Positions 3,387 to 53,409 are shown, counted from the first letter of the stretch. The stretch is DNA of 64,000 nucleotides from Pyrinomonadaceae bacterium (GCA_036401595.1 DASWUM010000020.1:4784-68783); one strand, 5' to 3'. Notes: generated by a model from the sequence alone, not told the origin. A program made the numbers and translations.

Positions 3387-3388
3387 AT

Positions 3389-4466: not shown

Positions 4467-4511
4467 AGTAATGGTTAGAAATATTTATTTGATTAAGGAC
4501 AACAAATCATC

Positions 4512-6020
4512 ATGAAGCAACTGGTTCGTTTTCGCCCCCAAGTCAGAATCGGAGTAGTGCTGCTGGCCATCGCGAGTGCCATCACGTTCTCCGCGATTTA
4601 TGCGCAGCGCAGTTACGGTTTCGACCAGGATCTCGGTAAGCTCAACCGCTTCGTCCAGAACAAAGGAAACACCGCCTCGATGCAGATCTTCCGCGAAGGC
4701 CGCGATCTCATCGAAGCGCAGAACTGGCAGCGAGCGGCTGAAAAATTCAACGACTTCATCAAGGGTTACCCAAAAGATAAAGATCTCGACGCCGCACTTT
4801 ATTGGTATGGCTACGCGTTGCAAAAACAGGATCGAAAAGAGGATGCACGCAAACCACTCGTCGTGCTGATCAACCGATTTCCAAGCTCGAGTTGGCGCGA
4901 GGAAGCAAAGGCCCTGCTCGTCGTGCTCGGCTACAAGGCCGACGTGGACCAGGCGCTCACTAATGAAAATTGCGAGATCAAGATGCTCGCCTTGCAGAGT
5001 CTCTTCCAGGCCGATCAAGAAAGGGCCATCACCATCGCCACCGAAGCCATCAAAGCAAATCCGCAACAATGTCCGGGTTTCCCGGCAGCGGCAGTATCAA
5101 TGCTCGGATCTCATGCCGGCTCGAGAGCCATTCCACTTCTCGTCGATATTGCGCGGACCAACCCCGATCAAAAACTTCGGCTCACTGCCATCAAGCGTTT
5201 AGGCGAACAGCGCTCGGATCAGGTAACCGACGCGCTCATCCAAATCTTCGACGCCGATCGGACCAGAGAAATCCGAGCGCAGATATTGCGCGCGTTGGTT
5301 GAAAGCCGCTCGCCTCGCGGTAGCGCTAAAGTGCTCGAAATCGCTCGCGCCAGTGATGACGTCGCCCTCCGTGTATATGCCATCCGTTTCATCGGCGAGC
5401 TCGAAGACTCCGCATCGCTTGACGAGTTGATTCGTATCTACGATGCCGACAAAACCAGAGAAATTCGGGCGCAGATACTGCGCGCACTCGCCGAGCGCGA
5501 GGACCAGCGCGCACGTACCAAGCTCTTCGAAATCGCACGGCAGGGCGACTCACCGGAAATGCGGCTCGAAGCAATTCGCCGTCTCGGCGATCATCAACGC
5601 ATTTCGCTCGACGATCTGATGCAGCTCTATACGAGCGAATCAAATCTGCAAATCAAACAGGGACTGTTACGCGCGTTTGCAGACAACAACGATCCACGCG
5701 CACAGGCGAAATTGTTTGAGATCGCTCGCGGCAACGACCCGGTTGAGCTGCGCGGTTATGCAATTCGACAGCTCGGCGAGAAGGATGACGAGCCGACTGT
5801 CAATCAGCTCGTGTCGATGTACGATTCAGAGCAAAACCCACAAATGAAAATGTCGTTGATGCGTGCATTTGGCGATTCGAAGCAGAAAGTTGCTGTTCGC
5901 AAATTGATGTTGATCGCCCGCAACGATCCGTCAGTGGAAATGCGCAAGATAGCGGTCAGGTATCTGGGCGAGAGCAAAGATCCTGAAGCCCTGAAATTTC
6001 TTGAAGACCTTCTGAAATAA
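4512..6020 (+). CDS. exported HEAT-repeat protein with N-terminal YbgF/BamD-like TPR segment, module 1
   Basis: Signal/anchor VRIGVVLLAIASAITFSAIYAQ. TPR-like segment DAALYWYGYALQKQDRKEDARKPLVVLINRFPSSSWREEA. Then about 6 copies of a 60-64-aa unit (L..IYDADKTREIRAQILRAL.....R...KLFEIAR..D.E.R..AIR.LG). Confidence 0.8.
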   Translation: MKQLVRFRPQVRIGVVLLAIASAITFSAIYAQRSYGFDQDLGKLNRFVQNKGNTASMQIFREGRDLIEAQNWQRAAEKFNDFIKGYPKDKDLDAALYWYGYALQKQDRKEDARKPLVVLINRFPSSSWREEAKALLVVLGYKADVDQALTNENCEIKMLALQSLFQADQERAITIATEAIKANPQQCPGFPAAAVSMLGSHAGSRAIPLLVDIARTNPDQKLRLTAIKRLGEQRSDQVTDALIQIFDADRTREIRAQILRALVESRSPRGSAKVLEIARASDDVALRVYAIRFIGELEDSASLDELIRIYDADKTREIRAQILRALAEREDQRARTKLFEIARQGDSPEMRLEAIRRLGDHQRISLDDLMQLYTSESNLQIKQGLLRAFADNNDPRAQAKLFEIARGNDPVELRGYAIRQLGEKDDEPTVNQLVSMYDSEQNPQMKMSLMRAFGDSKQKVAVRKLMLIARNDPSVEMRKIAVRYLGESKDPEALKFLEDLLK

Positions 6021-6034
6021 GGCCGATCAATCCG

Positions 6035-6073
6035 TCCACAGATTACACAGATTTCGTCTGCGTAATCTGTGGA
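6035..6073. repeat. hairpin repeat (CACAGAT type) between the two HEAT genes of module 1
   Basis: tccacagattacacag-atttcgt-ctgcgtaatctgtgga forms a 16-bp stem with one mismatch and a 7-nt loop. There is no T-run after it. Confidence 0.85.
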
Positions 6074-6091
6074 TTCACTCGGAGGAATTCC

Positions 6092-7678
6092 ATGCGTTAT
6101 TCAATGCTTCTCTTCCTGGCGATTATCGGCATTGCTTGTGCCGGTGGAAATCACAGCGCCCCTGTTACGACAGTCGCGGCCGCGGCTGCCGACGATCTGA
6201 AAACGCAGTCGCCCGACACCACGATACAAGGTTTTACTGCGGTGGAAGGCGCCGATCTCATGGCTCGTCTCGAGGCCGCACAATCGCGTGCACGCTCGCG
6301 TCAAACGCCTTACTGGTCGGCCTACACTTTTGACGTGCGACCAGGCATCGCTGTCGATCCTGCTATCCGTGAGTTTCATGGATCGATGAACACGATGGGC
6401 GACACGGTCGTGTTTGTCGGCACAAATTCAGCCGGCGTGACAGTGGAAACACGAAGTCTCGCGATCTTTCTGCTGCGTGAACCGGCGAGTAACCAAATCA
6501 CGCGCCTGGAGGTTTACAACCTCGAACGCAAACGTGAGTACAGCGGCTATCCCGTCTACTGGCTCGGCCGTGCGAACAACGAGGAAAGTCTCAACTACAT
6601 GCGCGCGCTTGCGGCAGCCTCGCCGCTCGATATGTTGAGCGAACGTGCGGTTCTCGGCATCGCGTTGCATGACGACGCTCGAGTCGCCGGTATGCTCAAG
6701 GGATTCGTCACCAGTTCGCCAAATCAGCGCATTCGTTCGAGCTCGGTTTACTGGCTAGGCCAGGTCGGCGGCGAAACGACATTCCTCGCGGGGCTCGTTC
6801 GCAGCGACACCGAAGACAAGAAGATCAGGCGCTCGGCAGCCCACGCGATTGGACAAAGTCGCGAGCGTGGAACAATACCGACCCTCCAGGGACTCTACGA
6901 GAGCGTGAAGGATGCCGAGATTCGTAGAAGTGTGATCTCAGCGGCCGGTAACAGTCTCGATGAACAGCCGGCCTGGACATTTCTGCTCGGTATCTCGAAG
7001 AACGATGCTGATTGGGAATCGCGCCGGACCGCTGTGCGTCAACTCGGAGATTTCAAGCGCGACGACACGGCCGACGAGTTGATGAAGATTTACAACAACG
7101 ACGCCAACATCGAGGTGAAGCGCGCCGCGTTGCGTTCGCTTGCCGAAACTAAGAATCCGCGTGGTCAGGCGCGTCTGCTCGAGATCGCGCGCACCGAAAC
7201 TAATCCTGAATTACGAAAGTCAGCGATTCGTGTGATGAGCGATCGCGGCGAAGCGGCAGTTGAGGATCTGCTGAAGTTGTTTGATTCGGAACAGTCGGCG
7301 GATGTCAGACGCTCAATTCTGCAAACGCTTTCGGACATCAAGAGCACGCGCGTCGAAGACAAGTTGTTTGAAGTTGCGAAGGGTAACGACACGCTCGACG
7401 TGCGGCGGCAGGCGATTCGACTACTCGGCGAACGCGCGAGCAAACGCAGCTTCGAGTTTCTGAGTGAGACTGCGCAGAGTAATGATGGAAATGCGGAAGT
7501 GCAGGTGCAGGCCGTGCGTGCGATCAGTGAGCGACGCGCCGAGGAATCCGTGCCGCTGCTGATCAAGATTGCGCGGACGCATCCGAATCAGCTCGTGCGC
7601 AAACAGGCAATTCGTTCGCTCGGCGAGTCGGGCGATCCGCGCGCGGTCGATTTCTTCAGGGAAGTGTTAACGAAATAA
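6092..7678 (+). CDS. exported protein with uncharacterised N-terminal domain plus C-terminal HEAT repeats, module 1
   Basis: Signal peptide MRYSMLLFLAIIGIACAGG. N-domain motifs YTFDVRPGIAVD and EVYNLERKREYSGYPVYWLGRANNEESLNYM are shared with 23460-24608. The HEAT units have the same type as in 4512-6020. Confidence 0.8.
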   Translation: MRYSMLLFLAIIGIACAGGNHSAPVTTVAAAAADDLKTQSPDTTIQGFTAVEGADLMARLEAAQSRARSRQTPYWSAYTFDVRPGIAVDPAIREFHGSMNTMGDTVVFVGTNSAGVTVETRSLAIFLLREPASNQITRLEVYNLERKREYSGYPVYWLGRANNEESLNYMRALAAASPLDMLSERAVLGIALHDDARVAGMLKGFVTSSPNQRIRSSSVYWLGQVGGETTFLAGLVRSDTEDKKIRRSAAHAIGQSRERGTIPTLQGLYESVKDAEIRRSVISAAGNSLDEQPAWTFLLGISKNDADWESRRTAVRQLGDFKRDDTADELMKIYNNDANIEVKRAALRSLAETKNPRGQARLLEIARTETNPELRKSAIRVMSDRGEAAVEDLLKLFDSEQSADVRRSILQTLSDIKSTRVEDKLFEVAKGNDTLDVRRQAIRLLGERASKRSFEFLSETAQSNDGNAEVQVQAVRAISERRAEESVPLLIKIARTHPNQLVRKQAIRSLGESGDPRAVDFFREVLTK

Positions 7679-7734
7679 GCCGCAGATGAACGCAGATCTT
7701 CGCAGATCTGCGTTCATCCGTTAAATCCGCGGCT
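7679..7734. repeat. palindromic intergenic repeat (CGCAGAT type) between convergent genes; likely bidirectional terminator
   Basis: gatgaacgcagatc (7685-7698), ttcgca, gatctgcgttcatc (7705-7718) form a perfect 14-bp stem. Outer arms gccgc / gcggc extend it. The element overlaps the TAG stop of the minus-strand gene at 7733-7735. Confidence 0.85.
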
Positions 7735-8692
7735 AAATACCTGCCAGGAGTTTCTTCCAACGCACCCATGCTTCGTCGCGTGCCTTCTTGTTTCCCTTCC
7801 ACGCCGTTAAGTTTTTCTGATAATCCTCGGCGGCCTTATCGTCGGCGGCTTTGTCACCCTTGGGTTGCGGAGCTACCGGCTCAGGCGCCTCACCGGCGCG
7901 CATGAAACCATGTCCCGCACCTTCGTACGTAACTGGATCAAAAGTCTTCTTCAACTCAGTCATTGCTTCCGACGTCTTCGGCAAAGTGGCGTTGATGCGA
8001 GCATCGTTGCCGGCGTAGAAGCCGTAAACCGGAGCAGTGATCTTTGCGAGGGCTGCTTTGTCCGGAGTGCCATCGGCGGCGGCCGGCGCTGAACCATAAA
8101 ACACAAACGCTGCTTTGATGTTTGGGTTGTTGGTGGCAAAACGGAACGATTGACTACCGCCCCAACAGTATCCTGTCACCACCACCTTGCCGTTCGACGC
8201 CGGAACTTTCGAGATGTAATCCGCAACGGCATTCAGGTCGGCAGTAATTTGATCCGGCGGAAGATCGCGGATCGCCTGGCCCACTCCATTACGATCGAGC
8301 GAACTCGTGCCACCACCGTTTGGTCCCATGCCCGAAAGCAGATCCGGTGCGATGGCAACGTAACCAGCTTCGGCTAGCTGGTCCGTCAAACTCTGCACCC
8401 AGTCGCTCATGCCGAAGATTTCATGAATGACGATCACTGCCGTCGCTTTGCTCTTATTCTCGGGATAGACCACGAAACTATTCACTTCGCGTGTGCCGTT
8501 CTTAATCTTCACCCACTCCTGGTGACGCGGCGACTTAGCCAAGCGCTGCTTGGCCCATTCCTGCGACTCATTCGGATCGGCCGCCGCCGCAGCCGGCGCG
8601 TTGTCGTTGTGGTGGTTCGCGTTCATGTCCTGTGCACAGGACGTTACCGAGCACAGGAGTACCAGCATAAACAAAGTGATCGTTGATCTCAT
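7733..8692 (-). CDS. dienelactone hydrolase family protein, exported
   Basis: Signal peptide MRSTITLFMLVLLCSVTSCAQ. DLH motifs VIVIHEIFGMSDWVQSLTDQLAEAGYVAIAPDLL, nucleophile elbow GYCWGG and EGAGHGF. Confidence 0.8.
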   Translation of the reverse strand: MRSTITLFMLVLLCSVTSCAQDMNANHHNDNAPAAAAADPNESQEWAKQRLAKSPRHQEWVKIKNGTREVNSFVVYPENKSKATAVIVIHEIFGMSDWVQSLTDQLAEAGYVAIAPDLLSGMGPNGGGTSSLDRNGVGQAIRDLPPDQITADLNAVADYISKVPASNGKVVVTGYCWGGSQSFRFATNNPNIKAAFVFYGSAPAAADGTPDKAALAKITAPVYGFYAGNDARINATLPKTSEAMTELKKTFDPVTYEGAGHGFMRAGEAPEPVAPQPKGDKAADDKAAEDYQKNLTAWKGNKKARDEAWVRWKKLLAGI

Positions 8693-8719
8693 TTTCCTCT
8701 CCCCGTTAGTTCTTTGATC

Positions 8720-10819
8720 TCACTTTTCAATATCGAAGTTGGCCCACTGGACCAGCGTCGTCTTCTTGTCTTTGGCCGCAGTCTCGACCACCACCACCTG
8801 AAGGTAGTAGTTGCCCGGTTCCAGATCTGCGGGCAAGTGCACTACACCGCCGCCGTAGAGACGCACCAGATCTGTTTGATTCGCAGCATTGATCGGAGTC
8901 TCCGGTCCCGTGAAAACAACCTTGCCATCGCGAAACAGCTTGGTCTGCACAACCAGATTCCGTAACGCACCACTCGAATTCGTGGCGTTGTAGACGATAT
9001 AAGCGAAATGGACGTCCGAATTCTTCGTAAAGCGTCTCGTGCCGGGGTTGGCGAGCGCGAATCCCTTGCTGTCGGTTCCGAGCACGAGTCCTGAAACCGC
9101 GAGCCGGTTGTTACCCAGATTGGGAACCGCCACAAACTGTCCGGCGGAACCGATGTGCGATGAATTTTTGTCTCGGGCAGCAATACGCACCTGGTAAGCG
9201 CCCGCATTCTTGACGGGCATGTCGAAGGTAATGTTCATGCCGAAGCGCTTCGCCTGTTCGTAATCTTCGTCAGTCAAACTCACACTCGCACTCCGCGTGA
9301 GCTGCTGAACCACGGCGCCATTGTCTCCGAAGATCACACCGTGCAACTCGATCGAGCCCTCTCGCTTTCCATTGACCGAAGTAAAAGTCATGTCGGCGGC
9401 ATCGAGGTAAACAAACGATCGAATCATCGAGCCCGCAATCTTGTCGTTTGCAAAAAATGACGTGATGTCGAGATTGATGTCCTGTTTTCCAAAAGGCGAC
9501 ATGAGCGCGAGGTTAGTGAGGTCGCGAACAGAGCGTCGATTCTTGTTTGCTTCTTCTTCACTCAACCCAAAGAAACCGAAACGCGTTCGCAAACTCATGC
9601 CGGAACGCTTCACCTTTGCCTTGATGTGATGGAACTTCCGGTTGAATGTCTCGTCAGTTGGTCGATAACCGATCAGGTAATAGCCGCTCTGATCTTCGAG
9701 GATGCGATCGAATTGAAAGCTGTTTGAGTTACGAACCTGAAAGCCGCCGGTTTGCCGCGCGATCATGTCTCCACCCTGGCGGCGGCTGAAAGCCAGTTTG
9801 GAACGAGACGACATCAAGGCGTTCATTTGGCCGGTAATCTGACGGAAATCGCCACCGAACGAATCTCTCGCTGAGATTCCAGTATCCGGAAGGCCCTGCG
9901 TGTCGACGGAATAAATAACGACCGACGACCGGATTGCTTTCTCGGCGATTTTTTGTAGGTACTGGGTGTAGTTGAGTGAAGAAGAGCCAACATTAGTAGC
10001 CGGGCTGAATTGGTCCAGGGTCAGTTCCTGCGACTCAACCGGTATGCTGTCTGAGAGCAGGACAAGCGATTTGCGTCCCGGCAACTCGCCCAAAGCGTCG
10101 ACTACAAAACGCACAACCCTGAGACTACTCCCTAACGAACTCCCACACGGTGCTTGTAACGCGTCAAACTCTGCCGCAGAAGAGTAGTTATTGAAGGCTG
10201 GACCAACGCCACTCGGCGCAAACAGAAATTGGCCCACACGACTGCACGGATTCCACCTCACTTGCTCCATCGCGCGATTCAAAACCCGCCGATCATTTGT
10301 GAACTGTTGCAGCGCGCCTACTTCGCCGCTGGTGCGGATGATCGCTACCAGATCGTTAGGCTGCATTTGCTCCGCAAGAAACTTCTTTAACTCTCGTCTA
10401 ACCAGGCCCATGCTCTCAGCCGAAAGACCAAGATCGTCGACCAGCAGTGCGATAGTGCGGCGCGGAACGTCGGCTTTTACAGGCGCAAAAGGCACGATGT
10501 CCGGACCTTTATCTCGCGCGATATTGACCGGTTGTGAACTCACGCCCGATACATTTGAAATGTAAGCGAAACTCGAAATCGCCTGCTTGCGGCCGTCTTC
10601 GTAGATCTCGAAATCGTCTGCCGTCAGATCCTTCACCAGTTTTCCGTCTTTGGTGACGACTGCATCAACCTGGACCAGGTTGGTGGTGATTTTGACAACG
10701 TCGCCGTCATCGTCGCCGGGTTTCTGCGGTTGGGGCGAGGGCGCAGGCTTAGTTTGGGCCAATACAGGCAACAAGACGCAGAACACTACCAGCAAAGCGA
10801 GGGATGTTCTTATCTTCAT
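8720..10819 (-). CDS. VWA domain-containing protein (VWFA-related acidobacterial domain, TIGR03436-like)
   Basis: Signal peptide. TTNLVQVDAVVTKDGKLVKDLTADDFEIYEDGRKQAISSF is the typical N-terminal signature of this family, followed by a VWA-like core (IALLVDDLGLS). Confidence 0.8.
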   Translation of the reverse strand: MKIRTSLALLVVFCVLLPVLAQTKPAPSPQPQKPGDDDGDVVKITTNLVQVDAVVTKDGKLVKDLTADDFEIYEDGRKQAISSFAYISNVSGVSSQPVNIARDKGPDIVPFAPVKADVPRRTIALLVDDLGLSAESMGLVRRELKKFLAEQMQPNDLVAIIRTSGEVGALQQFTNDRRVLNRAMEQVRWNPCSRVGQFLFAPSGVGPAFNNYSSAAEFDALQAPCGSSLGSSLRVVRFVVDALGELPGRKSLVLLSDSIPVESQELTLDQFSPATNVGSSSLNYTQYLQKIAEKAIRSSVVIYSVDTQGLPDTGISARDSFGGDFRQITGQMNALMSSRSKLAFSRRQGGDMIARQTGGFQVRNSNSFQFDRILEDQSGYYLIGYRPTDETFNRKFHHIKAKVKRSGMSLRTRFGFFGLSEEEANKNRRSVRDLTNLALMSPFGKQDINLDITSFFANDKIAGSMIRSFVYLDAADMTFTSVNGKREGSIELHGVIFGDNGAVVQQLTRSASVSLTDEDYEQAKRFGMNITFDMPVKNAGAYQVRIAARDKNSSHIGSAGQFVAVPNLGNNRLAVSGLVLGTDSKGFALANPGTRRFTKNSDVHFAYIVYNATNSSGALRNLVVQTKLFRDGKVVFTGPETPINAANQTDLVRLYGGGVVHLPADLEPGNYYLQVVVVETAAKDKKTTLVQWANFDIEK

Positions 10820-44169: not shown

Positions 44170-44496
44170 TTACGGCGATTGCGTGAGGAAGTCTTCAATC
44201 AAACGACGGTCGTTTTCTTCTTTGATTCTGGTGAACAGTTTCGTCCCCAGTTTCCTGATCGTCGCGGGCTTATCGAACGGCAAGCGATCGTACATCTGCC
44301 CGCCACTAAAATGACACGGCATGCACTTCGATTGGAAGATTGGCTTTAACTGCGTTTCGAAATCCACCCGCGCTTTGACGGTTGAAGGTGTCACTACAGT
44401 CGCAGAGGCAACTTCCGGCCAGCGAGCGAACTTAACCGTCCCACCGGACTCAACCAGCAACAACCCGATCGCAATTAAGATCAGAACAACCCGCAT
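44170..44496 (-). CDS. small exported c-type cytochrome-like protein (PSCyt1-like CxxCH)
   Basis: LKPIFQSKCMPCHFSGG carries a CxxCH haem-binding motif in the context typical of the planctomycete cytochrome C domain. N-terminal TM/signal present. Confidence 0.55.
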   Translation of the reverse strand: MRVVLILIAIGLLLVESGGTVKFARWPEVASATVVTPSTVKARVDFETQLKPIFQSKCMPCHFSGGQMYDRLPFDKPATIRKLGTKLFTRIKEENDRRLIEDFLTQSP

Positions 44497-44637
44497 ACTC
44501 CCTAATGTTACTCCTTAAATCGGAGCAGTAAATAACAAAAAGTGACGAGTCGTTGCTGCCGGGTTGTGAAATGATGAACAACCCAGGTAGGGGGAGTCTT
44601 TCTATCACGCCGCCAAAGCGTCGGCTTGCATGAATTG

Positions 44638-45018
44638 TTACGGCATACGCTGGTATTGTGCAGCCCAATCCTTGAGCACCTTAATTCTTGCACTGGTGAA
44701 TTCTGACCAACAATTTAACCTGGCGTCTTCTCTTATCATCTCTTTGAAGTTCATCTCTGCTGTAAAAGCACAAGAGTCTTCTACGAATCTTCGCCAGGTG
44801 ATTTGAGATTTTTTTAGCAACGCCGCCGCGGCGGGGCGGTTTCTTGTTGAGAGGCTCTGATACAAAGGTTTGTAGGCGGAATTGAGATTTTTGTCGAGTT
44901 TGTCGTAGAGACAGACACGAACAGCATCCATTGTCAGTCCGGCCTGCTCGCAGTCCTGTGCGTTGACGGTGAACCCGACCGCGAGCATGAAGATGAAGGC
45001 AAAAGCAAAATTTTTCAT
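44638..45018 (-). CDS. DUF1311 (LprI-like lysozyme-inhibitor fold) exported protein
   Basis: I start the gene at MKNFAFAFIFMLAVGFTVNAQ (cat at 45016-45018, RBS aaggga). Conserved pattern C....C...LN.AYK.L......LKKSQITWRRFVEDSC. Confidence 0.7.
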   Translation of the reverse strand: MKNFAFAFIFMLAVGFTVNAQDCEQAGLTMDAVRVCLYDKLDKNLNSAYKPLYQSLSTRNRPAAAALLKKSQITWRRFVEDSCAFTAEMNFKEMIREDARLNCWSEFTSARIKVLKDWAAQYQRMP

Positions 45019-45085
45019 ATGCGCTCCCTTATTAAAAATCGGAATTAACCCCGTTTTGCCTGCGAAGGAATTGTTATGCCGGCGG

Positions 45086-46228
45086 CTAACGTATGAGGTT
45101 GTAAACATCTTTATCGGAAACAAGGAAAGCACGGCCAAGTCCGATAAACTTCATATCATGGAACCGAATCTCTGAGTTGACTCTGCTCCAGGTCTTTCCG
45201 CCATCTGTTGTTTCGTAGAGAAATCTATTGTCTCCGAGCGCCCAGCCGTGCTCCGCGTTGTCAAAGTGCATGGCTGTAAAAAGCTCCCATCCCGCTTCTT
45301 TAGTCGCCATCTGCTCTGGAGACATAACATCACACCAGTGTCGTCCGCCGTCGACACTCCTGATGACACCACCATCTTCATAGCCGATCCAAATCACTTT
45401 GAAGTCAAGCATGGCAAGAGTCAGTGGACTGATAGCATAGTCTTGCTCCACATACTCCCTGCGCACACAGCTTTTATTGAGTTCACTCGAATTCCAGGTA
45501 ACACCACCGTCATTGCTGCGATAGATAGCGAGATTGCCTAAGGCGATGCCTTGTTTCTCATTCGCGAATTGAATTCGCCTGATCCGGCCCCAGACGCCGT
45601 CGTTTAGAGACTTCTGCCACGTCTTCCCACCATCGGCGGTGTGAAAAATGGCTTCCACCAGCACGCGTTTTCCCGTTACATCTTTGGTATTGTTGGGAAC
45701 TCCAAACTTCAGTTCTTCTTTCGTCTGATCGCGGTAAAGGCCACCTGCAAGCCATCCGGACTTTCCGTCTGCAAGAAAGTACAACGATCTGATCTCGCCA
45801 TTTGGGCCCTCGAGTGGCGACGACTCATGGATCCAGGTGCGGCCACCGTCTTCAGTCTTATAGAGCCTGGAAAAGGAAAAGCTCCAACCAACCGCGGCAT
45901 TGGTGAAGTGGTAACCAAGAATTAGTTCATCACCCGGAGTGTGATAGATCTCCTGCCAATTCTTGCCCCCATCGACCGATTGCCACAGGATTTTTTGAGT
46001 GCTTAGCCAGCAGACCTGTTCATTCACACAATCGATCGAGAAATCGGGACGATCAGTGAGCGGCAGTTCGCCAACCTTCGATAGTCCCGGAGTGCTCGTG
46101 TTGCTTTCATTTTGGGTTGCAGATGACGCTGAATTACTCGAGTCCTTCGAGATTGTAGTGCCGGCGTTCGAGCAACCAGCAAAACAAAGCACACAGCTCA
46201 TCAGCAACCCAATGATTCTCGTCATCAC
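45086..46228 (-). CDS. lipoprotein with BNR/Asp-box repeats (Ycf48/sortilin-like beta-propeller)
   Basis: Lipobox CFAGCS. Six SxDxGxTW-type boxes: SVDGGKNW, TEDGGRTW, TADGGKTW, SNDGGVTW, SVDGGRHW and TTDGGKTW. Confidence 0.8.
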   Translation of the reverse strand: MMTRIIGLLMSCVLCFAGCSNAGTTISKDSSNSASSATQNESNTSTPGLSKVGELPLTDRPDFSIDCVNEQVCWLSTQKILWQSVDGGKNWQEIYHTPGDELILGYHFTNAAVGWSFSFSRLYKTEDGGRTWIHESSPLEGPNGEIRSLYFLADGKSGWLAGGLYRDQTKEELKFGVPNNTKDVTGKRVLVEAIFHTADGGKTWQKSLNDGVWGRIRRIQFANEKQGIALGNLAIYRSNDGGVTWNSSELNKSCVRREYVEQDYAISPLTLAMLDFKVIWIGYEDGGVIRSVDGGRHWCDVMSPEQMATKEAGWELFTAMHFDNAEHGWALGDNRFLYETTDGGKTWSRVNSEIRFHDMKFIGLGRAFLVSDKDVYNLIR

Positions 46229-46264
46229 ATTGTTAGGCTCATGTTTATGTGCCTGATGGCGCCA

Positions 46265-46380
46265 GAGTTAATCACAGCGACCTTCGTCAAATCGTGGTTG
46301 CCCACAGTGGACAATCTTCGCAACTTTTTTGCGACGCTACCGATAGAGATGCTCAGTTTCTTGCGACGGTGCCAGAAGTC
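46265..46380. repeat. att-like mosaic: left half resembles the tRNA-proximal junction (53303-53350), right half resembles the distal junction (50474-50540), around a diverged tRNA-3'-end-like core
   Basis: gagttaatcacagcgaccttcgtcaaatcgTGGTTGCCCACAGTGGAC versus gagttaattctagcgaccttcgtcatatcgTGGTAGCGCATACGGGAC (39/48 identical). Next, aatcttcgcaacttttttgcgacgctaccgatagagatgctcagtttcttgcgac versus aatcttcgcaactttttcctgtcgccatcggcagaaatgctcaggttcttgcaac. Confidence 0.75.
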
Positions 46381-46442
46381 GATGTAGGCATATAGTCGAT
46401 TCGAGTCTGCGGAACCTTTAACGTAACCAATGTCAATCGTTC

Positions 46443-47033
46443 TCAAATAACAACGACACTCTCGGTCGCGGGCGGGATATTGTGCATATCAAGAAGTGGT
46501 CTGGCGTCTGGCATAATAAGATTCCGCGGAATTGGTTCTCGACGCCAGAACCGTTGAAATACCTGTGGGCCACTCTCACCCGTCTCGATAGCATTGATTA
46601 GATAGCGGAAATCAGCCAGGAAAAATCGCGTATAGGCAACATCAAGCTCAACCGGTAGGTCGGGCTCAACCTCGCCCACCAAAGTTCTCCCTATCTCGGC
46701 TGCTTCATACTCATGGTCGTAAATGAGCTGAACATCGCGTGAGAAGAGTTCTTGACCGCGTCGTAACACAAGTGCGTTAGCCCGCTTTACGCGCTCGTTC
46801 ATGCCGGCGATTTGAGTCATGTGACCAAATAGATGGGCGACAGTGAACCAGAGCGCAAAGGGCGATGCGCTTTGAGGAAAGAGGGTTATCGTATGCCCTT
46901 CAAAGACTCCTATGAATCGGGCTTGATCAGAAGGAGGTACGGCGTCGAGAGTTGTCACCCCTAACCGTTCCACATACAAGCGTAACCGAGTCAGTTTTGC
47001 TGGAAACTCAGAACGACTTAGAAAATCATCCAT
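46443..47033 (-). CDS. ImmA/IrrE (DUF955)-like protein with degenerate metalloprotease motif
   Basis: FTVAHLFGHM aligns with the family signature FTLAHELGH, but the catalytic Glu is replaced by Leu. Length is 196 aa. Confidence 0.45.
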   Translation of the reverse strand: MDDFLSRSEFPAKLTRLRLYVERLGVTTLDAVPPSDQARFIGVFEGHTITLFPQSASPFALWFTVAHLFGHMTQIAGMNERVKRANALVLRRGQELFSRDVQLIYDHEYEAAEIGRTLVGEVEPDLPVELDVAYTRFFLADFRYLINAIETGESGPQVFQRFWRREPIPRNLIMPDARPLLDMHNIPPATESVVVI

Positions 47034-47229
47034 CGATAAAGTTCTCTCAAATAGAAGTGAACGGACTTAAATTAAACCATCCAGCAGCGCTTCGAAAACT
47101 AATTCGAGCGTTGTTCAAGGCGGTGCAATACGTCAAGTCAAACCCTGACAACGGTAACGCGCTCATCGGCTACGAAGGCCGTTTAATTATATTGAACTGC
47201 GAGTTGAAAGGCAGCGTTTTTTGAATCAA

Positions 47230-48408
47230 ATGCGGTCCACCCAAGCAAAACTTCTGAATTGTTTATGTGCGATGACAACGATTTTCCTCAGCTGTCTCGG
47301 TCCACATTGGCTGGCCCAGGAACTGTCCAAAGATCTTCCCGGGCGAGAGTGGAGAGATATGGTCGGTACGGATCTTTGGGGCAGCGACTGTAAGCCCGCT
47401 GAGAATCCCAAGGATGGTGCCCGCATTTGCAGGGGAGTCGAAGGTTATTCGCTCCTGATTAAAGGTGATGAGGTTGAGCGGGGGCTTTTCTTAGCGAAAC
47501 CGGAAATTTATTTGATTGCCCCGAATGGACGACACTATCCGCTGCGCTACTGGAATACCAGCGATCCCAAATATGAGGGGCTTCACCGTTCTGCATTATG
47601 GCTAATAGTAAATACGCCCAGAAAAACTATTACTCTTACATTCACCTTGAAAGTTGCGCAGAGGCAAGACTATTCGTACAGCGATTCTTACGACGTCATC
47701 GTAAGAGTTTCTCCAACTCCTGTTTGCATTGTTGGAAGCGTCGCCGGCAGTTCCACGTCGGCTGGTGAAAGTGTCGGGATCTCAAGCACTCCACGCGGAC
47801 GACCCTGTCTAAACCTGAATGAGTACGAAAAGCGGGATTGGTTTCTTACCGCGCGAAGACTGGCAAACGAAGGACAGATCAATGCTGCGAGGCGCTCGCT
47901 GAGGAGAGTTCGCGAACCTTCTGAACGCTTCATAGTGTATCGCGAAATGGCGAGCAGTCAGTTCAAGGCAGGTAATTCGGAAGCTGCTCGACGGATACTA
48001 ATCGGAGCGCGCGCGGAGGCGCTCAAAAGTCATTTTCGTGAGGGCCTAAACTACACACTGAGTAATGTCGTTAGCGGTCTGACAGAGTCGGGATTCTACG
48101 ATGCCGCAAAAGCAGACATCAGGCTCTTTCCTGATGCCGACAGGGTGCAAATGTATTTAACTGTTGCCTTCATCCAAGGCGAACGAAACGATCTCAATGC
48201 GGCCAAGAAAACCTTTCAAGAAGCAATTCAACGCGAAGTGAGGAAAAACGGTCCACACGCTGATTGGAGACTATATGAAATCGGTATGGCCCAAGCGCGT
48301 ATGGGACTGCTCGACGAAGCAAGAAAAACCGCTTCAATGATCCGTGATCCTTCACCTCGGCAGATGCTTGAAACCAGTATTAGGGAACGATCGGCAAAAC
48401 CAGAATAG
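47230..48408 (+). CDS. hypothetical exported protein with C-terminal TPR-like helical repeats
   Basis: Signal-like LLNCLCAMTTIFLSCLGPHWLAQ. The C-terminal half is alpha-helical repeats (AARRILIGARAEALK and LDEARKTASMI). The start is ATG 47230, or TTG 47221 as in the track. Confidence 0.55.
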   Translation: MRSTQAKLLNCLCAMTTIFLSCLGPHWLAQELSKDLPGREWRDMVGTDLWGSDCKPAENPKDGARICRGVEGYSLLIKGDEVERGLFLAKPEIYLIAPNGRHYPLRYWNTSDPKYEGLHRSALWLIVNTPRKTITLTFTLKVAQRQDYSYSDSYDVIVRVSPTPVCIVGSVAGSSTSAGESVGISSTPRGRPCLNLNEYEKRDWFLTARRLANEGQINAARRSLRRVREPSERFIVYREMASSQFKAGNSEAARRILIGARAEALKSHFREGLNYTLSNVVSGLTESGFYDAAKADIRLFPDADRVQMYLTVAFIQGERNDLNAAKKTFQEAIQREVRKNGPHADWRLYEIGMAQARMGLLDEARKTASMIRDPSPRQMLETSIRERSAKPE

Positions 48409-48560
48409 TTACGATTGTTATCATCCACGCCTGACGGCCGCTCGCTACCAGGACTTTACGCAAAAATCTACTTACTGAATAGTGCGTAGTTGTTGAAAGG
48501 ATGGTGGTAGCCCGGCTAGCGAGTCGGGTTGAATGACTTGTTGGATTTCGTCGGTAGATT

Positions 48561-48857
48561 CTAAATGCTCTTGCCATTACGCCCTTCGCTAAAATAGCGG
48601 TCGACGACGGCGACCAGATTTCGTAAATTCTCTTCGGTGCGAATCTGAGAATCCACTAGCGCATTGATTTTGACATTGACGTCATTGAATCCAACGTGCG
48701 TCACGCTGGCGAGGCGCGCGACGATCTCCCCAGTTTGGGCGACTACCTGGTCAGTTCGAGCTTGCGATTCCTGTAATTGCTGAATGTCGGAAGCAAACTG
48801 CGCTTGCTGCTCCACGATAAAGGCCATCTTTTTTTCGATTTCTTCGTTACTCATCAT
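48561..48857 (-). CDS. hypothetical small coiled-coil protein
   Basis: 98-aa ORF with heptad-like sequence (IVEQQAQFASDIQQLQESQARTDQVV). RBS ggagat lies upstream. Confidence 0.5.
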   Translation of the reverse strand: MMSNEEIEKKMAFIVEQQAQFASDIQQLQESQARTDQVVAQTGEIVARLASVTHVGFNDVNVKINALVDSQIRTEENLRNLVAVVDRYFSEGRNGKSI

Positions 48858-49270
48858 GAGGATCTCCTGTACTAATTGCAGAGAGTGTAACGAAGAGTCA
48901 CGTTAAGACCAAGCGTCGGCGTGAAATGAGTAGTTGGGCCGCACAGGGATCGAATCGAAATCACCAGGCGGTAGTTTTTCCATACGCCGTGACTGGCACT
49001 ATAGTTTGGCCGGAAGTGCGAATTGGAAGTTAATCGTGGCCGAAAGTACAGACCTTCAGGACGAGTAATTGTTCCTTTCACAATCCGCGAAGTCACAGAG
49101 CTATACTCTCACCCATGCCTTATAGACTTCAGCCGGATTTCCAAGCCCAAAGACTCGAAGAGAATGTCGAGCCGGATCGAACTATACCCAAAGCAGGGCC
49201 TTTCGGCGCTCAACTGTCCAAGGCTATAAGCTGCAGTTCTAACTACAGGCTCCGTACAAAAGAGGAACAT

Positions 49271-50347
49271 ATGAAGAGAATGTTGCTTTCGCTACTCGTG
49301 CTTTTGATATCAACAAACGCTTGGGCGCAACCGCCGCTCGATGCATTCATTGCCGGCTATGCCAAGGCACACAATTTCAATGGCACGATCCTGGTCCAAA
49401 AGAACGACAAAGTCATTTACTCGAGCAGTTTCGGACTGGCGAACTTTCGCTTCGATGTTCCCAATACGGTGCAGACCAAATATCGCATCGCTTCGATCAC
49501 AAAGGTGTTCACTTCGGTTCTCGTCTTGCAGCTTCAAGAGCAAGGACTGCTTGATCTCAATAAGACCATCAAGACGTACCTACCCGACTACACCGGCCCT
49601 GCCGCTGACAAGGTGACCCTGCATCAACTGCTGAATCACACATCCGGTATCGAAAATATGGACAAGGTGAAGAGCGCAGACGAGGCAATAAGAATTGGCC
49701 TGCCGGCGTACCAGTTGCCACACACCGCTGACCAACTGTTGACCCAGTTCGCCAGCGGCGCGTTGGTGCATACGCCCGGCACCGTGTTCGATTATAACAA
49801 CGCCGACTACATCATTCTGGGCAAAATCATCGAGCGTGTATCCGGTAAGACCTACGATCAGGTCCTGAAAGCCCAGATCCTGCAACCGCTGGAAATGATG
49901 GACACCGGCATGCCGTATCAGCACAACATCATCCACGGCCTGGCCGATACCTATTTCTTTCGCGAGGACCTCGGCACCCTCGTACCCGACCTGCCCCACT
50001 ATCCAGAAAACTGGTACGCCGCCGGCGGCCTGTACTCGACAGTCAATGACCTGCTGAAATTTTCCAACGCACTGTTCGGTGAGAAGCTGCTGAAAAGGGA
50101 CTCACTCACTCGCATGATCAAACCGGGGCTCGACGACTATGGCTATGGACTGTGGTCGTATGAGACCAAAATAGGCGGCAAGAAATATCGCGTCGTTAAG
50201 CGGCCAGGGCAGATTATGGGCGCGCAGAGTCAGCTTTATCACTTTATGGACGCAGCGGTGACGGTGATCATGCTGAGCAACACGGGAACTACCGATCTCG
50301 ACCAGTTCGTAGCGGAGATCGGTAAGCGAGTCGTTAACAATCCTTAG
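49271..50347 (+). CDS. serine hydrolase, beta-lactamase class C / penicillin-binding protein family, exported
   Basis: I start the gene at MKRMLLSLLVLLISTNAWAQ (RBS agagga). SxxK motif in RIASITKVFTS, and YNNADY matches the YxN motif. Confidence 0.8.
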   Translation: MKRMLLSLLVLLISTNAWAQPPLDAFIAGYAKAHNFNGTILVQKNDKVIYSSSFGLANFRFDVPNTVQTKYRIASITKVFTSVLVLQLQEQGLLDLNKTIKTYLPDYTGPAADKVTLHQLLNHTSGIENMDKVKSADEAIRIGLPAYQLPHTADQLLTQFASGALVHTPGTVFDYNNADYIILGKIIERVSGKTYDQVLKAQILQPLEMMDTGMPYQHNIIHGLADTYFFREDLGTLVPDLPHYPENWYAAGGLYSTVNDLLKFSNALFGEKLLKRDSLTRMIKPGLDDYGYGLWSYETKIGGKKYRVVKRPGQIMGAQSQLYHFMDAAVTVIMLSNTGTTDLDQFVAEIGKRVVNNP

Positions 50348-50459
50348 CAGCGGAGCCAAGCCCCGGTCTTGCACCGAAGGGATTGCCTGAAAACAAGCGG
50401 GCTAAAATCCTGATTATGGACCTAAGGTTGGCCGCAATGTTTGGAACTAAATAGAAAGT

Positions 50460-50477
50460 TGGTAGCGCATACGGGAC
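50460..50477. repeat. 18-bp exact direct repeat of the tRNA-Glu 3' end (distal att site)
   Basis: tggtagcgcatacgggac at 50460-50477 is identical to 53333-53350. That sequence is ACCA plus the acceptor and T-stem 3' strand of the tRNA, read on the plus strand. Confidence 0.9.
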
Positions 50478-50611
50478 AATCTTCGCAACTTTTTCCTGTC
50501 GCCATCGGCAGAAATGCTCAGGTTCTTGCAACAGCTGAGAGAGGCGGTCTAGTCCGGCAAGTCGAAATCGACCTCAAAGCCATTTTTAGAGGCATAGATT
50601 AATAACCCTAT

Positions 50612-50740
50612 TTAGGCAAGTTCAATGAATGAGCGCAGAACGTCTTGGGCCAGCACATGTTGTTCCAAGACGAGACGCTTAAACTCTTCAAGCTTGCCAT
50701 CAGGGATTTTGAGTCTAGCGACACATTGAAGTTCGCTCAT
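50612..50740 (-). pseudogene. truncated antibiotic-biosynthesis-monooxygenase (ABM)-like gene fragment (42 codons)
   Basis: My translation is MSELQCVARLKIPDGKLEEFKRLVLEQHVLAQDVLRSFIELA*. The first ~25 residues resemble the N-terminus of about 100-aa ABM/quinol monooxygenase proteins (ARFKI..GKLEEFK). RBS ggaagt. It is below the track's size cutoff. Confidence 0.35.
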
Positions 50741-50838
50741 TGCTCTTACTTCCGGTTCTTATCTCAAGACGTTGGATATCTAGCCGCGCCGCCTAACGAC
50801 CTGACGTTAACCTGCGGGCGCACCAGCGCCAGTCAGTT

Positions 50839-51549
50839 TCAAGGTCCGGTTAGCCAGCCGCCTCCCACATGTGCGATGAGGTCCGGTTCGGCCAGCAGAA
50901 CGTTGCGCATGAAATAGGACAGGTCAGCACAGAACGCCAGGAAACCCTCCTCGCCCACAGTTATCTGACCGTCAAACGCGACGTAGGCACCAGACTCGAG
51001 AATCAAAGCGCAATCAGGACGCCGGTCATCACGCGTGTCGGCCATCCGTTTCTTGAGTGAATCCACCGACGCGAAACCTTTGAATCCGACGGCAACCATC
51101 GGGATCCTCGAGACGCTCGGTCCAACCTCACTGAAACCCGAGGTTGGATCGATCTGGAGGTGCCTCCGCCATTTGCGTCGGAGCGGGTGCAACTTAGCCG
51201 TTGTTTCCTCGACTTGCGACCACTGAGCAGCTAAGTCCGACTTGACCTCTCCGACGCAAGCGACCGACTCCGCGAGATAGAGGCGCTCGCCTCCTCCTGG
51301 CGCGGGAAAGCTTGCGAAAAACGGGAACTCCACGACGACATCGAGCTGGCCGGTGGTCAGACCAGCTGCGTCTGCGATTGCACCACTGCCGAAACGGTAT
51401 GGCAAAGGAAAGACACGCTCGAGAAACTCCCGCACGAGGGTCTCCCGCTCGCCTCCCTTTGCAGCGTTTGGAAGGAGGGCGGATGCCCTGTGATGGGCCA
51501 TTAGGATCTCGCGAATCCCGCGCAAGCGAGCTCTGAGGGCTTCGTTCAC
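50839..51549 (-). CDS. PD-(D/E)XK nuclease-fold protein, DUF6602-like
   Basis: GGERETLVREFLERVFPLPYRFGSGAIADAAGLTTGQLDVVVEF...LYLAESVACVGEVKSDL follows the DUF6602 layout: G..RE...FL...LP, GsG.I.D..G..S.Q.D.V, then ExK. Confidence 0.6.
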   Translation of the reverse strand: MNEALRARLRGIREILMAHHRASALLPNAAKGGERETLVREFLERVFPLPYRFGSGAIADAAGLTTGQLDVVVEFPFFASFPAPGGGERLYLAESVACVGEVKSDLAAQWSQVEETTAKLHPLRRKWRRHLQIDPTSGFSEVGPSVSRIPMVAVGFKGFASVDSLKKRMADTRDDRRPDCALILESGAYVAFDGQITVGEEGFLAFCADLSYFMRNVLLAEPDLIAHVGGGWLTGP

Positions 51550-51693
51550 GAACTTCTCCGTCTGGGCTAACGTTGCGCTTCACCGGCTCGCCCACGCAAC
51601 TACTAATAAAGGCTACTCACCGGCGAGTCCGCTGCAAGCGCTTGTTCGGCGCTGCGTGAAAACATCGGCGCAAGACAATGGCAAAGCCGCCCC

Positions 51694-52629
51694 TTACTTT
51701 CGACCGCGTTGTCCATGACACGCTCCATATCTTTTTCCAGAGCCACAGGGGCAACGTTCCTTACGCCGGACGCGAGGAATCCAAGCTGGCGAAGCCGCCT
51801 CCTTCTCACGCACTTTTGCCAGCTTGGTAAAACGACCATATACGGGTCGACCAGGCTGAGCTGCGTTTATGAAATCTGGAACGAAAGCTTCATCGGTCGG
51901 TATAGACGTATTGAACCACAACTCAATCTCTCGAGTTTCGTCATGAGGAATTATTATCCCGCTAACTTGCATTCCTATTGTTTGCCCTTCTCTTTCGGAG
52001 GAAGCCTCTCTTAGTAAACCAGCGGCCATCTCAGCCACAGTCTTCGCCGGCTTTTGATTCTTCAAGGCAGCCTCAATACGAATGGCCCGTCTCTCCCGAA
52101 GTGCCTGCCACGCACCGATCCTTTGAACGCATATTGAGGTTTGCGAAGTGGGGTCGGCCACCTTCCATCGCATAATTCGAAATTCTTTCCACGCCTCAGG
52201 ACTGTCAATTCGGGTTTCGAAGTCCTGAAAGTTGCTAATTAACGCTAATCGACTTATTGGGGGTCGTTCATTTGTGACGCCCGCAATCAATATTGTGAGT
52301 CGTTGTTGCCGTGAGGACATTGGCATGATTGCAGGATGGCTGCCAAAGGTAGTTGCTGCCTCTCGTGCGAGACCGCTCGGAATACCAAGATACGTTGGGT
52401 CACCTGCAGCGGCGCGCACTGCGCTCTTAAGGATCCAATCTCGTGTAACGAAAGTTCGATCTTGTGAATAGGCTAGTCCGGCGTATGCGACTCCGAAACG
52501 ACCATCTCTCGTATGCACCGCCAGAAGCTTGTTGGAATGCTCAGTGACAGGAATTCCCGCCTCAGTTAAACGCTGATCCGCCAAAACAATTGTGTACGAA
52601 GGGCCTTGTATGCTCAGTGCTAGTGTCAT
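51694..52629 (-). CDS. hypothetical protein with proteasome/HslV-like (Ntn-hydrolase) N-terminal pattern and C-terminal SEC-C zinc motif
   Basis: The C-terminal CPCGSGKRYGACHG is a canonical SEC-C motif. The N-terminus MTLALSIQGPSYTIVLADQRLTE...NKLLAV...GVAYAGLAYS...LTILIAGV parallels HslV [21 protein letters not shown]...KKV...AGFAGGTADA (Thr1, Asp17, Lys33 positions). Confidence 0.5.
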   Translation of the reverse strand: MTLALSIQGPSYTIVLADQRLTEAGIPVTEHSNKLLAVHTRDGRFGVAYAGLAYSQDRTFVTRDWILKSAVRAAAGDPTYLGIPSGLAREAATTFGSHPAIMPMSSRQQRLTILIAGVTNERPPISRLALISNFQDFETRIDSPEAWKEFRIMRWKVADPTSQTSICVQRIGAWQALRERRAIRIEAALKNQKPAKTVAEMAAGLLREASSEREGQTIGMQVSGIIIPHDETREIELWFNTSIPTDEAFVPDFINAAQPGRPVYGRFTKLAKVREKEAASPAWIPRVRRKERCPCGSGKRYGACHGQRGRK

Positions 52630-52830
52630 GAATCTCTGTATTAATTCGAAAGCGCCGAACTTTGTGCATCTTGATCTGGATAAGATCGCGAAGTGTTCTT
52701 TAGCAGTTCCTTTTCCTTCCTTATAAACCAGCGGTCACGTTTCGGTAATCCGTCTGTCCATAGCGCTTTTGACTTATCAAACAAACTTTCTCTATTATCC
52801 GCTTCCGAATAAAATCGGCTTTGCGAGGAC

Positions 52831-53170
52831 TCAATGCGGGTCCGCCGGACTTCTGACGACCTTCTCTACTCGGTTCAAGACGTGCTTGTAAATCATCGAC
52901 GTTTCAAAGTGCTTATGTCCTGAATTCGGTTATTGAATATGAGATTCATCAGCGCCTGAGGAACGTTTCGAGAACGATATGCAATTGCTAACACCGGTTC
53001 ACCAGCACTGTCAATAGCACCTCATCACACAACGTCACCACAGAGGGATGGCTGCTTGATCGAACGACACATTCCCAGATCGAAATTATTCAGCTTGCGG
53101 GATCTAGAAGGAACGATTGTGGAGTTCTGATAAATTAGTGCGTCTGTCCCAAACCGACCGCGTCTGATCT
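52831..53170 (-). pseudogene. decayed tyrosine recombinase/integrase (C-terminal catalytic region only, multiple in-frame stops)
   Basis: My reverse-strand translation reads ...GADESHIQ*PNSGHKHFETSMIYKHVLNRVEKVVRSPADPH*. This parallels integrase C-termini (..GADIRTIQELLGH.D..TTMIYTHVL..GG.GV.SP.D). Upstream in the same frame: FRSGNVSFD (compare LRW.DVDFD) and further stops. It lies adjacent to the tRNA. Confidence 0.65.
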
Positions 53171-53332
53171 CAAACAATCAGATTGACATGATAGTTGTCG
53201 CGAAGTCATACCTTCCTCAAAGCTGAAGGAGTTTTTCTTTCTGCTGAGGCTTGAGTGTCCTTGCAATTACTAACACGAGTTGGCAAAAAGAAAAGGCCGC
53301 TGGAGTTAATTCTAGCGACCTTCGTCATATCG

Positions 53333-53409
53333 TGGTAGCGCATACGGGACTCGAACCCGTGGTCTCTGCCTTGAGAGGGCAGCGTGTTAGCCGACTACAC
53401 CAATGCGCC
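53333..53409 (-). tRNA. tRNA-Glu (anticodon CUC), CCA encoded
   Basis: The reverse complement GGCGCAT-TG-GTGT-AGTCGGCTA-ACAC-G-CTGCC-CTCTCAA-GGCAG-AGACC-ACGGG-TTCGAGT-CCCGT-ATGCGCT-A-CCA folds into a 77-nt cloverleaf. The anticodon loop is C-T-CTC-A-A. Confidence 0.9.

Follow-up and report, generated by a model that had tools for sequence, protein, structure and literature searches.

Cis-mobilizable elements (CIMEs), which are integrase-less derivatives of integrative elements, and the tandem accretion of integrative elements at tRNA and transfer-messenger RNA (tmRNA) genes have been described, for example for the ICESt1-related elements of Streptococcus (PMC5704250). The ssrA islands of Dehalococcoides are also arranged in tandem and are bounded by repeats of the tmRNA 3' end, each repeat being preceded by a conserved motif; about half of them carry a serine-recombinase integration module and the rest are without it (PMC3146451). 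Among integrons, those of Treponema have an atypical layout, in which intI is co-oriented with the cassettes (PMC3607928), and clusters of attC sites lacking the integron integrase (CALIN arrays) that are accompanied by intI pseudogenes have been described as well (PMC4889954). Here we analyze an islet, E1 (50478-53332; 50460-53350 with the two core copies), at the 3' end of the tRNA-Glu(CUC) gene of a Pyrinomonadaceae genome (GCA_036401595.1), within a stretch of 64,000 nucleotides that we call the window. We think, with a probability of roughly 0.7, that E1 is a non-autonomous unit that was placed by conservative recombination at an 18-nt core through an enzyme encoded elsewhere, and that it carries an integron remnant whose cassettes had been captured earlier by IntI.

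The repeat at tRNA-Glu(CUC) and the variable region

The single tRNA gene that ARAGORN detects within the window is an intact tRNA-Glu(CUC) on the minus strand at 53333-53409 (Rfam RF00005, 68.6 bits at 53336-53409). Its last 18 nt, CCA included (reverse complement TGGTAGCGCATACGGGAC on the plus strand), span the 3' strand of the T-stem, the 3' strand of the acceptor stem, the discriminator base and the CCA. A preliminary description of the locus, made by reading the DNA, had pointed out that they recur exactly at 50460-50477, and this is confirmed: the window holds two exact copies on the minus strand, namely core copy B at the tRNA itself (53333-53350, the junction of attachment type attL) and core copy A (50460-50477, attR-type, 18/18 identical), against a chance expectation of 0.00 (100 shuffles). 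No third copy is found in the window when up to two mismatches are allowed. Beyond these 18 bp the identity breaks off, the preceding base being t in one copy and g in the other. The tRNA-Glu gene is regenerated, and the insert is bracketed by a direct repeat of its 3' end.

Each core copy is accompanied by an arm. The D arm (53203-53332, minus strand; nhmmer D profile 53350->53203) lies directly 3' of the tRNA and consists of a terminator-like hairpin, GGTCGCTAGA/TCCAGCGGCC, with a T-run (53320->53285), followed by TTGCCAA..TAATTGCAAG; the stretch after the T-run is also given as TTGCCAAG..TAATTGCAAG. The U arm (50478-50575, minus strand; nhmmer U profile 50552->50460) lies 5' of the distal core copy and ends in ..GGAAAAAGTTGCGAAGATT. 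Read on the tRNA strand, the order is tRNA body - core - D at the tRNA and U - core - unrelated flank at the distal end. A second junction, which is degenerate and attP-like, was found by blastn-short, sequence reading and the nhmmer U and D profiles 4.1 kb beyond the distal 18-mer (site C, 46172-46400, minus strand). It is formed by U' (46313-~46400), core' GTCCACTGTGGGCAACCA (46295-46312) and D' (46294->46172); core' agrees with the tRNA core at 13/18 positions, whereas U' and D' are 80-85% identical to U and D. The core variant of site C is the commonest class in the metagenomes considered below, not a decayed copy of the tRNA-Glu end. To judge from the order of its parts, the U'-core'-D' layout would fit an attP or, alternatively, the place where two tandem elements join.

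Conservative site-specific recombination would produce just this anatomy. In that event a circular partner, whose attP had the order U arm - 18-nt tRNA-like core - D arm, would have recombined with the tRNA 3' end as its target, and the outcome, tRNA body - core - D ... U - core, would regenerate the tRNA, with the D arm supplying it with a new terminator-like hairpin. Since E1 has no working recombinase, it would be a non-autonomous, CIME-like unit, either mobilised in trans or placed via recombination among repeated U-core-D sites.

The preliminary description had regarded the insertion as a 2.9-kb decayed remnant. A repeat-bracketed foreign piece of this size does exist, but it is only the tRNA-proximal unit of a composite 8.8-kb insertion region, a recurrent type of hotspot that is common in soil Acidobacteria. 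When the flanking gene pntA was used as query, 80 loci from species-representative genomes were obtained, the nearest ones belonging to Pyrinomonadaceae metagenome-assembled genomes (Acidobacteriota, Blastocatellia) with at most 95% protein identity. The tRNA-Glu(CUC) gene stands directly upstream of pntA in ~55 of the 80, and neither orf1 nor orf2, the two intact genes of E1, is found in any of these ~55 Pyrinomonadaceae/Blastocatellia loci with tRNA-Glu-pntA synteny. In several relatives, homologues of the window genes at 36-42.4 kb and of the conserved gene p108 (44170-44496 in the window) adjoin the tRNA; in L004 the p108 homologue is 113 bp away from it. Therefore, all 8.8 kb between p108 and tRNA-Glu (44570-53332) are extra here, and not just 2.9 kb. 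The ten open reading frames (ORFs) of this strain-specific region are absent from the relatives' loci, except for a beta-lactamase-family ORF that has two matches of paralogue level only, at ~31% identity (L046, L063). Site C divides the region into three segments, which are E3 (44570-46294), E2 (46313-50459) and E1.

The composition of the region is foreign as well. The tetranucleotide correlation of the 8.8 kb with the rest of the window is r = 0.80, compared to 0.973 +/- 0.005 for background of the same size (0/300 as low), and each of E1, E2 and E3 is an outlier on its own (0/300 background windows as low); for E1 the value is 0.69 versus 0.91 +/- 0.03. The GC content across E1 is mosaic, from 45 to 60%, and the stretch by the tRNA (52630-53332) is AT-richer than the window, 45.1% against 54.3% GC, as had been noticed earlier, though the 55-60% then attributed to the remainder was somewhat high. 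Absence from relatives, deviant composition and the exact flanking repeat together uphold the earlier proposal that foreign DNA was inserted at the 3' end of tRNA-Glu. The empty site then predicted, with the 50459-side flank directly abutting the tRNA, was not seen, because none of the loci has a homologue of the flank to the left of 50460. Exact-protein matches to PntA and orf2 come from just one other contig, which is identical to the window; SRR11051967 is the sole sample in which the contig occurs.

A probable integron remnant inside the islet

The decayed tyrosine recombinase that had been noticed next to the tRNA is present, and one of the reverse frames, interrupted by stops, contains exactly the peptide quoted for it (..GADESHIQ*PNSGHKHFETSMIYKHVLNRVEKVVRSPADPH*). 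It is not, however, a classical tRNA-island integrase: as far as its sequence tells, the remnant is the C-terminal stub of an integron integrase. The stub occupies 52831-53146 on the minus strand, and its secure part is 52831-52920 (GHKHFETSMIYKHVLNRVEKVVRSPADPH*); the remainder is recognisable only through nucleotide homology to the stub of another contig, L136 (70% identity over 500 nt with L136 2654-3127). TIGR02249, 'integron integrase', is the sole NCBIfam match (E=3e-5, profile positions 274-313 of 315), the best match in the PDB is the C-terminus of VchIntI4, and tblastn with intact relatives (P0005) gives 74% identity over 27 aa at 52920->52840. Three-frame translations of the remnant gave nothing with Pfam or PHROGs, plasmid sequences had no blastn match to the remnant, and a homologous-protein search with the raw remnant gave no candidate. 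The consensus of the window, L098 and L136 remnants was used instead, and it retrieved 682 database proteins. The best 120 of them (P0005-P0124) are all fragments of 43-115 aa that end ..GYDIRTIQELLGHKDVxTTMIYTHVLNRGGKGVRSPADAL; their C-terminal 45-50 residues are near-identical, their N-termini are unrelated, and several of them come from within contigs of 20-330 kb. On the evidence of these fragments, truncated intI stubs seem to be widespread. In P0065, which extends further upstream, the IntI-specific segment is present (TIGR02249, E=4.8e-56). The window stub is without this additional domain, the region having been deleted, and of the ~1 kb that an integrase gene needs ~320 bp are left; only the last 30-100 codons survive.

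The stub reads towards a leader and the cassettes, that is, in the co-oriented or 'inverted intI' layout. The leader (52654-52830, minus strand) extends from the intI stop to the first cassette and ends in GTTCGGC (52660->52654), with a probable crossover between G52660 and T52659. Its ~170 nt are conserved in at least nine other contigs (L098, twice, L160, L092, L149, L123, L194, L152, L011 and L211), in each of which it ends ...ATAG|TTCG.. directly before a gene, and attC sites of a common type come after the same leader in L098 and L211. With these properties we regard it as a putative attI-like leader.

Two cassettes, both on the minus strand, are predicted behind it. Cassette 1 (1089 bp, 51571-52659) comprises orf2 and attC-1, an 86-nt site at 51650->51565 with the boxes R'' GCCGAAC and R' GTTAGCC (fold z=-2.0), and cassette 2 (774 bp, 50797-51570) comprises orf1 and attC-2, a 65-nt site at 50855->50791 with R'' GGCTAAC and R' GTTAGGC (z=-2.1). 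After each ORF, on the coding strand, there is an imperfect hairpin with bulged bases in which AAC is paired to GTT, and both hairpins have lengths within the 57-141 nt of attC sites. The R'' box pairing points in the same direction. The start of cassette 1, GTTCGGC, is the exact reverse complement of its own R'' GCCGAAC (7/7), the R' of attC-1, GTTAGCC, is the exact reverse complement of the R'' of orf1, GGCTAAC (7/7), and in each cassette the first 6 nt are perfectly complementary to the R'' of that cassette's attC; we estimate the chance of a given 7-mer in a 150-nt window at ~1%, and that of both matches jointly at <1e-4. A third, degenerate cassette is a faint possibility at 50576-50796 (minus strand), from sequence reading and folding: this piece starts with TTAGGC and has a 42-codon ORF (50612-50740) and an R''-like GCCTAAA (50617->50611, 6/7 in its pairing with GTTAGGC), and no convincing hairpin was found after it by folding.

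Further evidence comes from a farmland metagenome contig, L090, whose positions 1159-2236 are 94% identical at the nucleotide level to 52661->51573 of the window, the flanks being different on both sides. The homology starts at 52661 and stops within ~2 nt of both predicted G|TT crossovers. This comparison of two sequences shows one of the two cassettes, that of orf2, to be independently mobile. L090 is itself an attC-type array, unrelated to the window locus. Upstream of its orf2 cassette, two ~95-nt near-identical imperfect palindromes (GGAGTGCGGCGGCTTGGCGCCGC...GCGACGCCGAGCCGCTGCACTC; 125-215 and 455-545) lie between small genes, and they look like the homogeneous attC family of a sedentary integron.

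The two genes had been described as intact cargo, and intact they are, both on the minus strand (orf1, 236 aa, 50839-51549; orf2, 311 aa, 51694-52629), but they are not ordinary cargo, being attC-bounded integron cassettes. The product of orf1 has a DUF6602 domain (Pfam, E=1.8e-14) of PD-(D/E)xK type, matches the NucC effector of PADLOC (E=2.5e-10) and is homologous over residues 29-206 to Serratia NucC (PDB 7zgv, E=7.6e-6), which makes it a member of the NucC / PD-(D/E)xK family. NucC is the endonuclease effector, activated by cyclic triadenylate (cA3), of cyclic oligonucleotide-based antiphage signaling systems (CBASS) and of CRISPR systems of type III. Genes for a cyclase or for CRISPR functions were found in neither the islet nor its neighbours. 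The C-terminal SEC-C zinc motif (Pfam) is the sole domain recognised in orf2, which is very rare (four database proteins), and its AlphaFold2 model from the single sequence is unusable, with a predicted local distance difference test score (pLDDT) of 32.5. The only moderately distant homologue of orf2, P0003 (46% identical), is located in L083 at one end of an unrelated 9-kb element (166-9217) that has DUF5131, a DUF3854/DUF3631 primase-like gene and a tyrosine integrase; thus, orf2-type genes travel on another kind of mobile element too. In L213 (8001-14008), genes in the same orientation come after an intI stub; among them are a KAP NTPase, QatB and TatD, and the arrangement looks like a Qat anti-phage system as integron cargo.

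The cargo of E1 would then be a decayed co-oriented integron made of stub, leader, cassette 1, cassette 2 and possibly the degenerate third, its cassettes having been captured earlier by attI x attC recombination of IntI type, in this or in another genome. The preliminary description had read the remnant, together with the repeat, as a sign of site-specific integration, and a history along that line is a classical tRNA-integrating island, which was inserted by its own tRNA-specific integrase and decayed in place until two ordinary cargo genes were left. The exactness of the direct repeat agrees with it. However, the only family that the remnant matches is that of integron integrases, a conserved attI-like leader and attC-bounded cassettes follow it, and no more than ~320 bp of a ~1-kb gene remain. 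Moreover, the same truncated stub with its leader is found at 70-95% nucleotide identity in other contexts, in L136, L139, L098 and L211, and so the truncation most likely took place before the placement at tRNA-Glu. We consider such a self-integrating island unlikely. The integrase had probably lost its function before it arrived, and the islet was probably not inserted by it.

U and D arms in soil metagenomes and the search for a recombinase

The arms of E1 belong to a family. Scanning of metagenomes with the U-core junction yielded at least 120 contigs, all from soil or rhizosphere, and 220 U copies were gathered from the metagenome contigs listed, a few relatives and part of the window; there were 0 matches in viral contigs. 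Within one contig the U-core copies are always co-oriented, with a spacing of 130-160 bp or 0.7-3.5 kb, and the arrays that they form adjoin several different tRNAs and consist of units of 0.1-4 kb, often with one gene. Doublets of U-core copies 130-160 bp apart are frequent in L091-L210 (for instance L112 1055/3112/5113/5241, L169 2759/2918 and L124 1876/2640/2777), one subfamily of them having a conserved spacer, CGGTTACACGCTGCACT..GCGCCAATGCTCGCGACTCGGAGTGACTGGCAGATTTAGGGCGCTTCTCGCAAC; they may be empty units or a longer composite site. Among the relatives, U-core-D sites are located 0.7-1.5 kb from tRNA-Glu in L011, L056 and L005. In L011 the tRNA-Glu (9708-9781) was called as 74 nt with no encoded CCA after it (..GCGCTATTCAG), and the U-core-D site, 1 kb from this tRNA, has a full CCA-containing core. 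Recurrent large proteins near the arrays (ORF clusters of L091-L210) resemble paralogous families of Acidobacteria, as judged from their N-terminal sequences only; among them, judged in the same way, are a ~900-aa kinase-like protein and an FtsX/MacB-type permease with PadR regulators.

The same D arm is found after tRNA-Glu, tRNA-Asn(GUU), tRNA-Asp(GUC) and, in part, tRNA-Ser(UGA) in other contigs (for the last three, L195 5215-5419, L140 1281-1435 and L111 6988-7147, respectively). Hence, the arm is element-borne and the family is not specific for tRNA-Glu, and on these grounds we rejected the possibility that the tRNA has its native terminator in the D arm. An origin of the D arm from the intI 3' end and the leader was rejected too, because local alignments (winB, L056a, L195) were no better than shuffles. 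The D hairpin is kept in ~35 copies despite changes on both arms (seen by eye in the folds, uncounted). A scan for consensus terminators did not flag it, probably on account of an A.C mismatch in the stem.

The comparison of arrays allows the exchange point to be located. A core-D-gene unit follows the tRNA-Glu body in L056 and the U arm in L208 and L168, and another one is shared between L140 (tRNA-Asp) and L134. That the same unit can come after a tRNA body or after a U arm places the exchange inside the core. We rejected a crossover at a G|TT, whether that of the U arm or that of the tRNA T-loop, since a tRNA that is followed by the same cassette has kept its T-loop intact. The U-core-D site was also considered as a structured RNA or an attC-type hairpin and was rejected as either, with no Rfam family and no RNAalifold consensus (fold z from -0.8 to +2.2; U alone -0.2).

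These data bear on the possibility that the locus is an integron platform anchored at the tRNA, in which an IntI-type recombinase, once encoded at the stub or acting in trans, would work on attC/attI and on the tRNA-like core, with U-core(-D) as its sites. There are several attractive points in it: stub and leader recur inside U-core arrays (L136, L098, L139 and L160), the arrays are co-oriented with no recombinase beside any arm, and the terminal 7-8-nt inverted repeats of the U arm, TCGCAAC...GTTGCGA, carry the AAC/GTT triplets of attC R boxes. In addition, a group II intron (L179 10723-11368, opposite strand; Rfam D1-D4 115 bits, domains 5-6 43 bits) adjoins a U copy at 10660-10721, and group IIC-attC introns are known to insert into attC sites. 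However, the exchange point inside the core is 3' of the GTTGCGA box of U, which is not the G|TT cleavage of IntI, the U-core-D site forms neither an attC-like hairpin nor a structure in RNAalifold, the leader is present in only ~9 of the 120 array contigs among the matches listed, and stub modules also exist away from tRNA and U-core. We give little credence to this platform. The association between the integron layer and the tRNA-array layer is recurrent and not obligatory, and the link between both may be incidental.

The enzyme was searched for in several ways. In a jackhmmer search of all ORFs of all loci, five tyrosine recombinases only were detected, in L199 (a trio), L202 and L083, and none of them is beside an arm; among the array contigs listed (~120), L199 and L202 are the only ones that encode a tyrosine recombinase, in neither case next to an arm. 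The three genes of L199 (1466-4699) are adjacent, a 'recombinase in trio', 700 bp from a U-core copy. Clustering of the ORFs of the array loci listed revealed no recurrent integrase, and tblastn with approximate query sequences of XerD and IntI1 found no recombinase beside an arm. No recombinase ORF other than the intI stub exists in 44.5-53.4 kb, no functional recombinase or transfer gene in E1, and no autonomous relative with the same U/D arms among 217 loci.

This leads to the question of whether any dedicated recombinase is needed. The U-core-D sites could be a dispersed repeat family whose units are shuffled or duplicated by homologous recombination or replication slippage, as no integrase accompanies any arm, the repeats share 100-350 bp, which is enough for RecA-dependent exchange, and many 130-160-bp 'empty' doublets exist. 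However, the U-core(-D) repeats do not show a dispersed distribution, for throughout the 64-kb window and the ~1 Mb of loci from relatives each of them lies in the interval that separates a tRNA from the first conserved gene. The first arm begins exactly at the tRNA 3' end, always, and four tRNAs are used, which requires an initial site-specific event. Besides, the identity of core copy A to the tRNA is limited to the 18-nt core, because the flank beyond is unrelated to D, and this is too short for efficient homologous recombination. We therefore judge shuffling with no dedicated enzyme to be very improbable, and the 18-bp repeat would come from integrase-mediated rather than homologous recombination. 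A bolder proposal is that the U - tRNA-like core - D sites make up a previously undescribed tRNA-anchored cassette system of soil Acidobacteria, in which a recombinase with its gene elsewhere inserts small integrase-less units, with one gene or a few, in tandem at several tRNA 3' ends. We hold this to be doubtful; given the intI stubs and attI leaders within arrays, the recombinase of such a system might be an IntI-type enzyme.

Returning to the reading that we prefer, a non-autonomous unit placed by an enzyme that would be encoded elsewhere, several facts weigh against it. Homologous recombination between U-core-D repeats of 100-350 bp would yield the same junctions. Neither a circular (or attP) form of E1 nor a cognate integrase turned up, and for this reason it is from the anatomy only that site-specific recombination at the core is deduced; nor was an empty site for the 2.9-kb unit alone observed among the relatives. 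As to the cargo, the z-scores of the attC hairpins are modest (~-2), the spacers between R and L boxes are 2-3 nt, shorter than in textbook attC sites, the family of the stub was assigned on ~40 residues plus context with the IntI-defining region gone, and stub-leader-cassette modules with no nearby tRNA or U-core exist (L211-L217).

Comparison with known systems

The locus has some practical consequences. An integrase remnant beside a tRNA can mislead, as the one found here is cargo, the stub of an integron integrase, and not the relic of the inserting enzyme, which is relevant for the automated calling of islands and of integrons. Integron cassettes, one of them with a NucC-like nuclease, are documented in Pyrinomonadaceae, a poorly studied soil lineage in which the module of truncated stub and leader appears to be widespread. 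The U/D arms, for their part, mark a family of tRNA-anchored arrays, present in at least 120 soil contigs, none of whose arms has a recombinase beside it. Identifying their trans-acting recombinase, if there is one, would open a way to study the turnover of accessory genes in soil Acidobacteria. If an IntI-type enzyme did act on the arrays, they would be an integron-like platform with a tRNA gene as its primary attachment site.

Each layer of the locus resembles a known kind of element. As in CIMEs and in the Dehalococcoides islands, direct repeats of a tRNA-type 3' end bound tandem units, many units keep attL and attR and have no integration genes, and the region is highly strain-variable; E1 itself keeps both core copies and the arms, with no integration or transfer genes, as CIMEs do. 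The conserved motif just upstream of each repeat copy is also shared with the Dehalococcoides islands. The differences are that the units are small here (0.1-4 kb, often one gene), that the same arms are found at several different tRNAs, and that the cargo of E1 is an integron remnant. Unlike the Dehalococcoides islands, only 2 of the ~120 array contigs listed (L199 and L202) have a tyrosine recombinase, neither beside an arm, and, unlike autonomous tRNA islands, E1 has no tRNA-targeting integrase beside its att site, just the IntI-type stub.

The integron layer can be compared in the same manner. As in CALIN arrays with an intI pseudogene, there are two attC-type sites on one strand, co-oriented cassettes and an intI pseudogene less than 1 kb away, and one cassette of the islet is shared with another array; as in Treponema, intI reads towards attI and the cassettes. 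In contrast to a complete integron, intI is here a stub with stops whose IntI-specific domain region is deleted. It also differs from the CALIN and Treponema cases in that just the last 30-100 codons of intI are left, that the truncated stub with its leader is widespread, that repeats of a tRNA 3' end bound the unit in which the module is located, and that the attC sites have short R-L spacers. The protein of orf1 is like NucC in its sequence homology and its PD-(D/E)xK-type domain, whereas orf1, unlike the genes of NucC systems, stands alone as a single-gene cassette. Thus, we think that E1 combines two known kinds of organization, CIME-like tandem accretion and a CALIN array with an intI pseudogene, and that this combination, together with the U/D-armed arrays at several tRNAs, is a variant of them.

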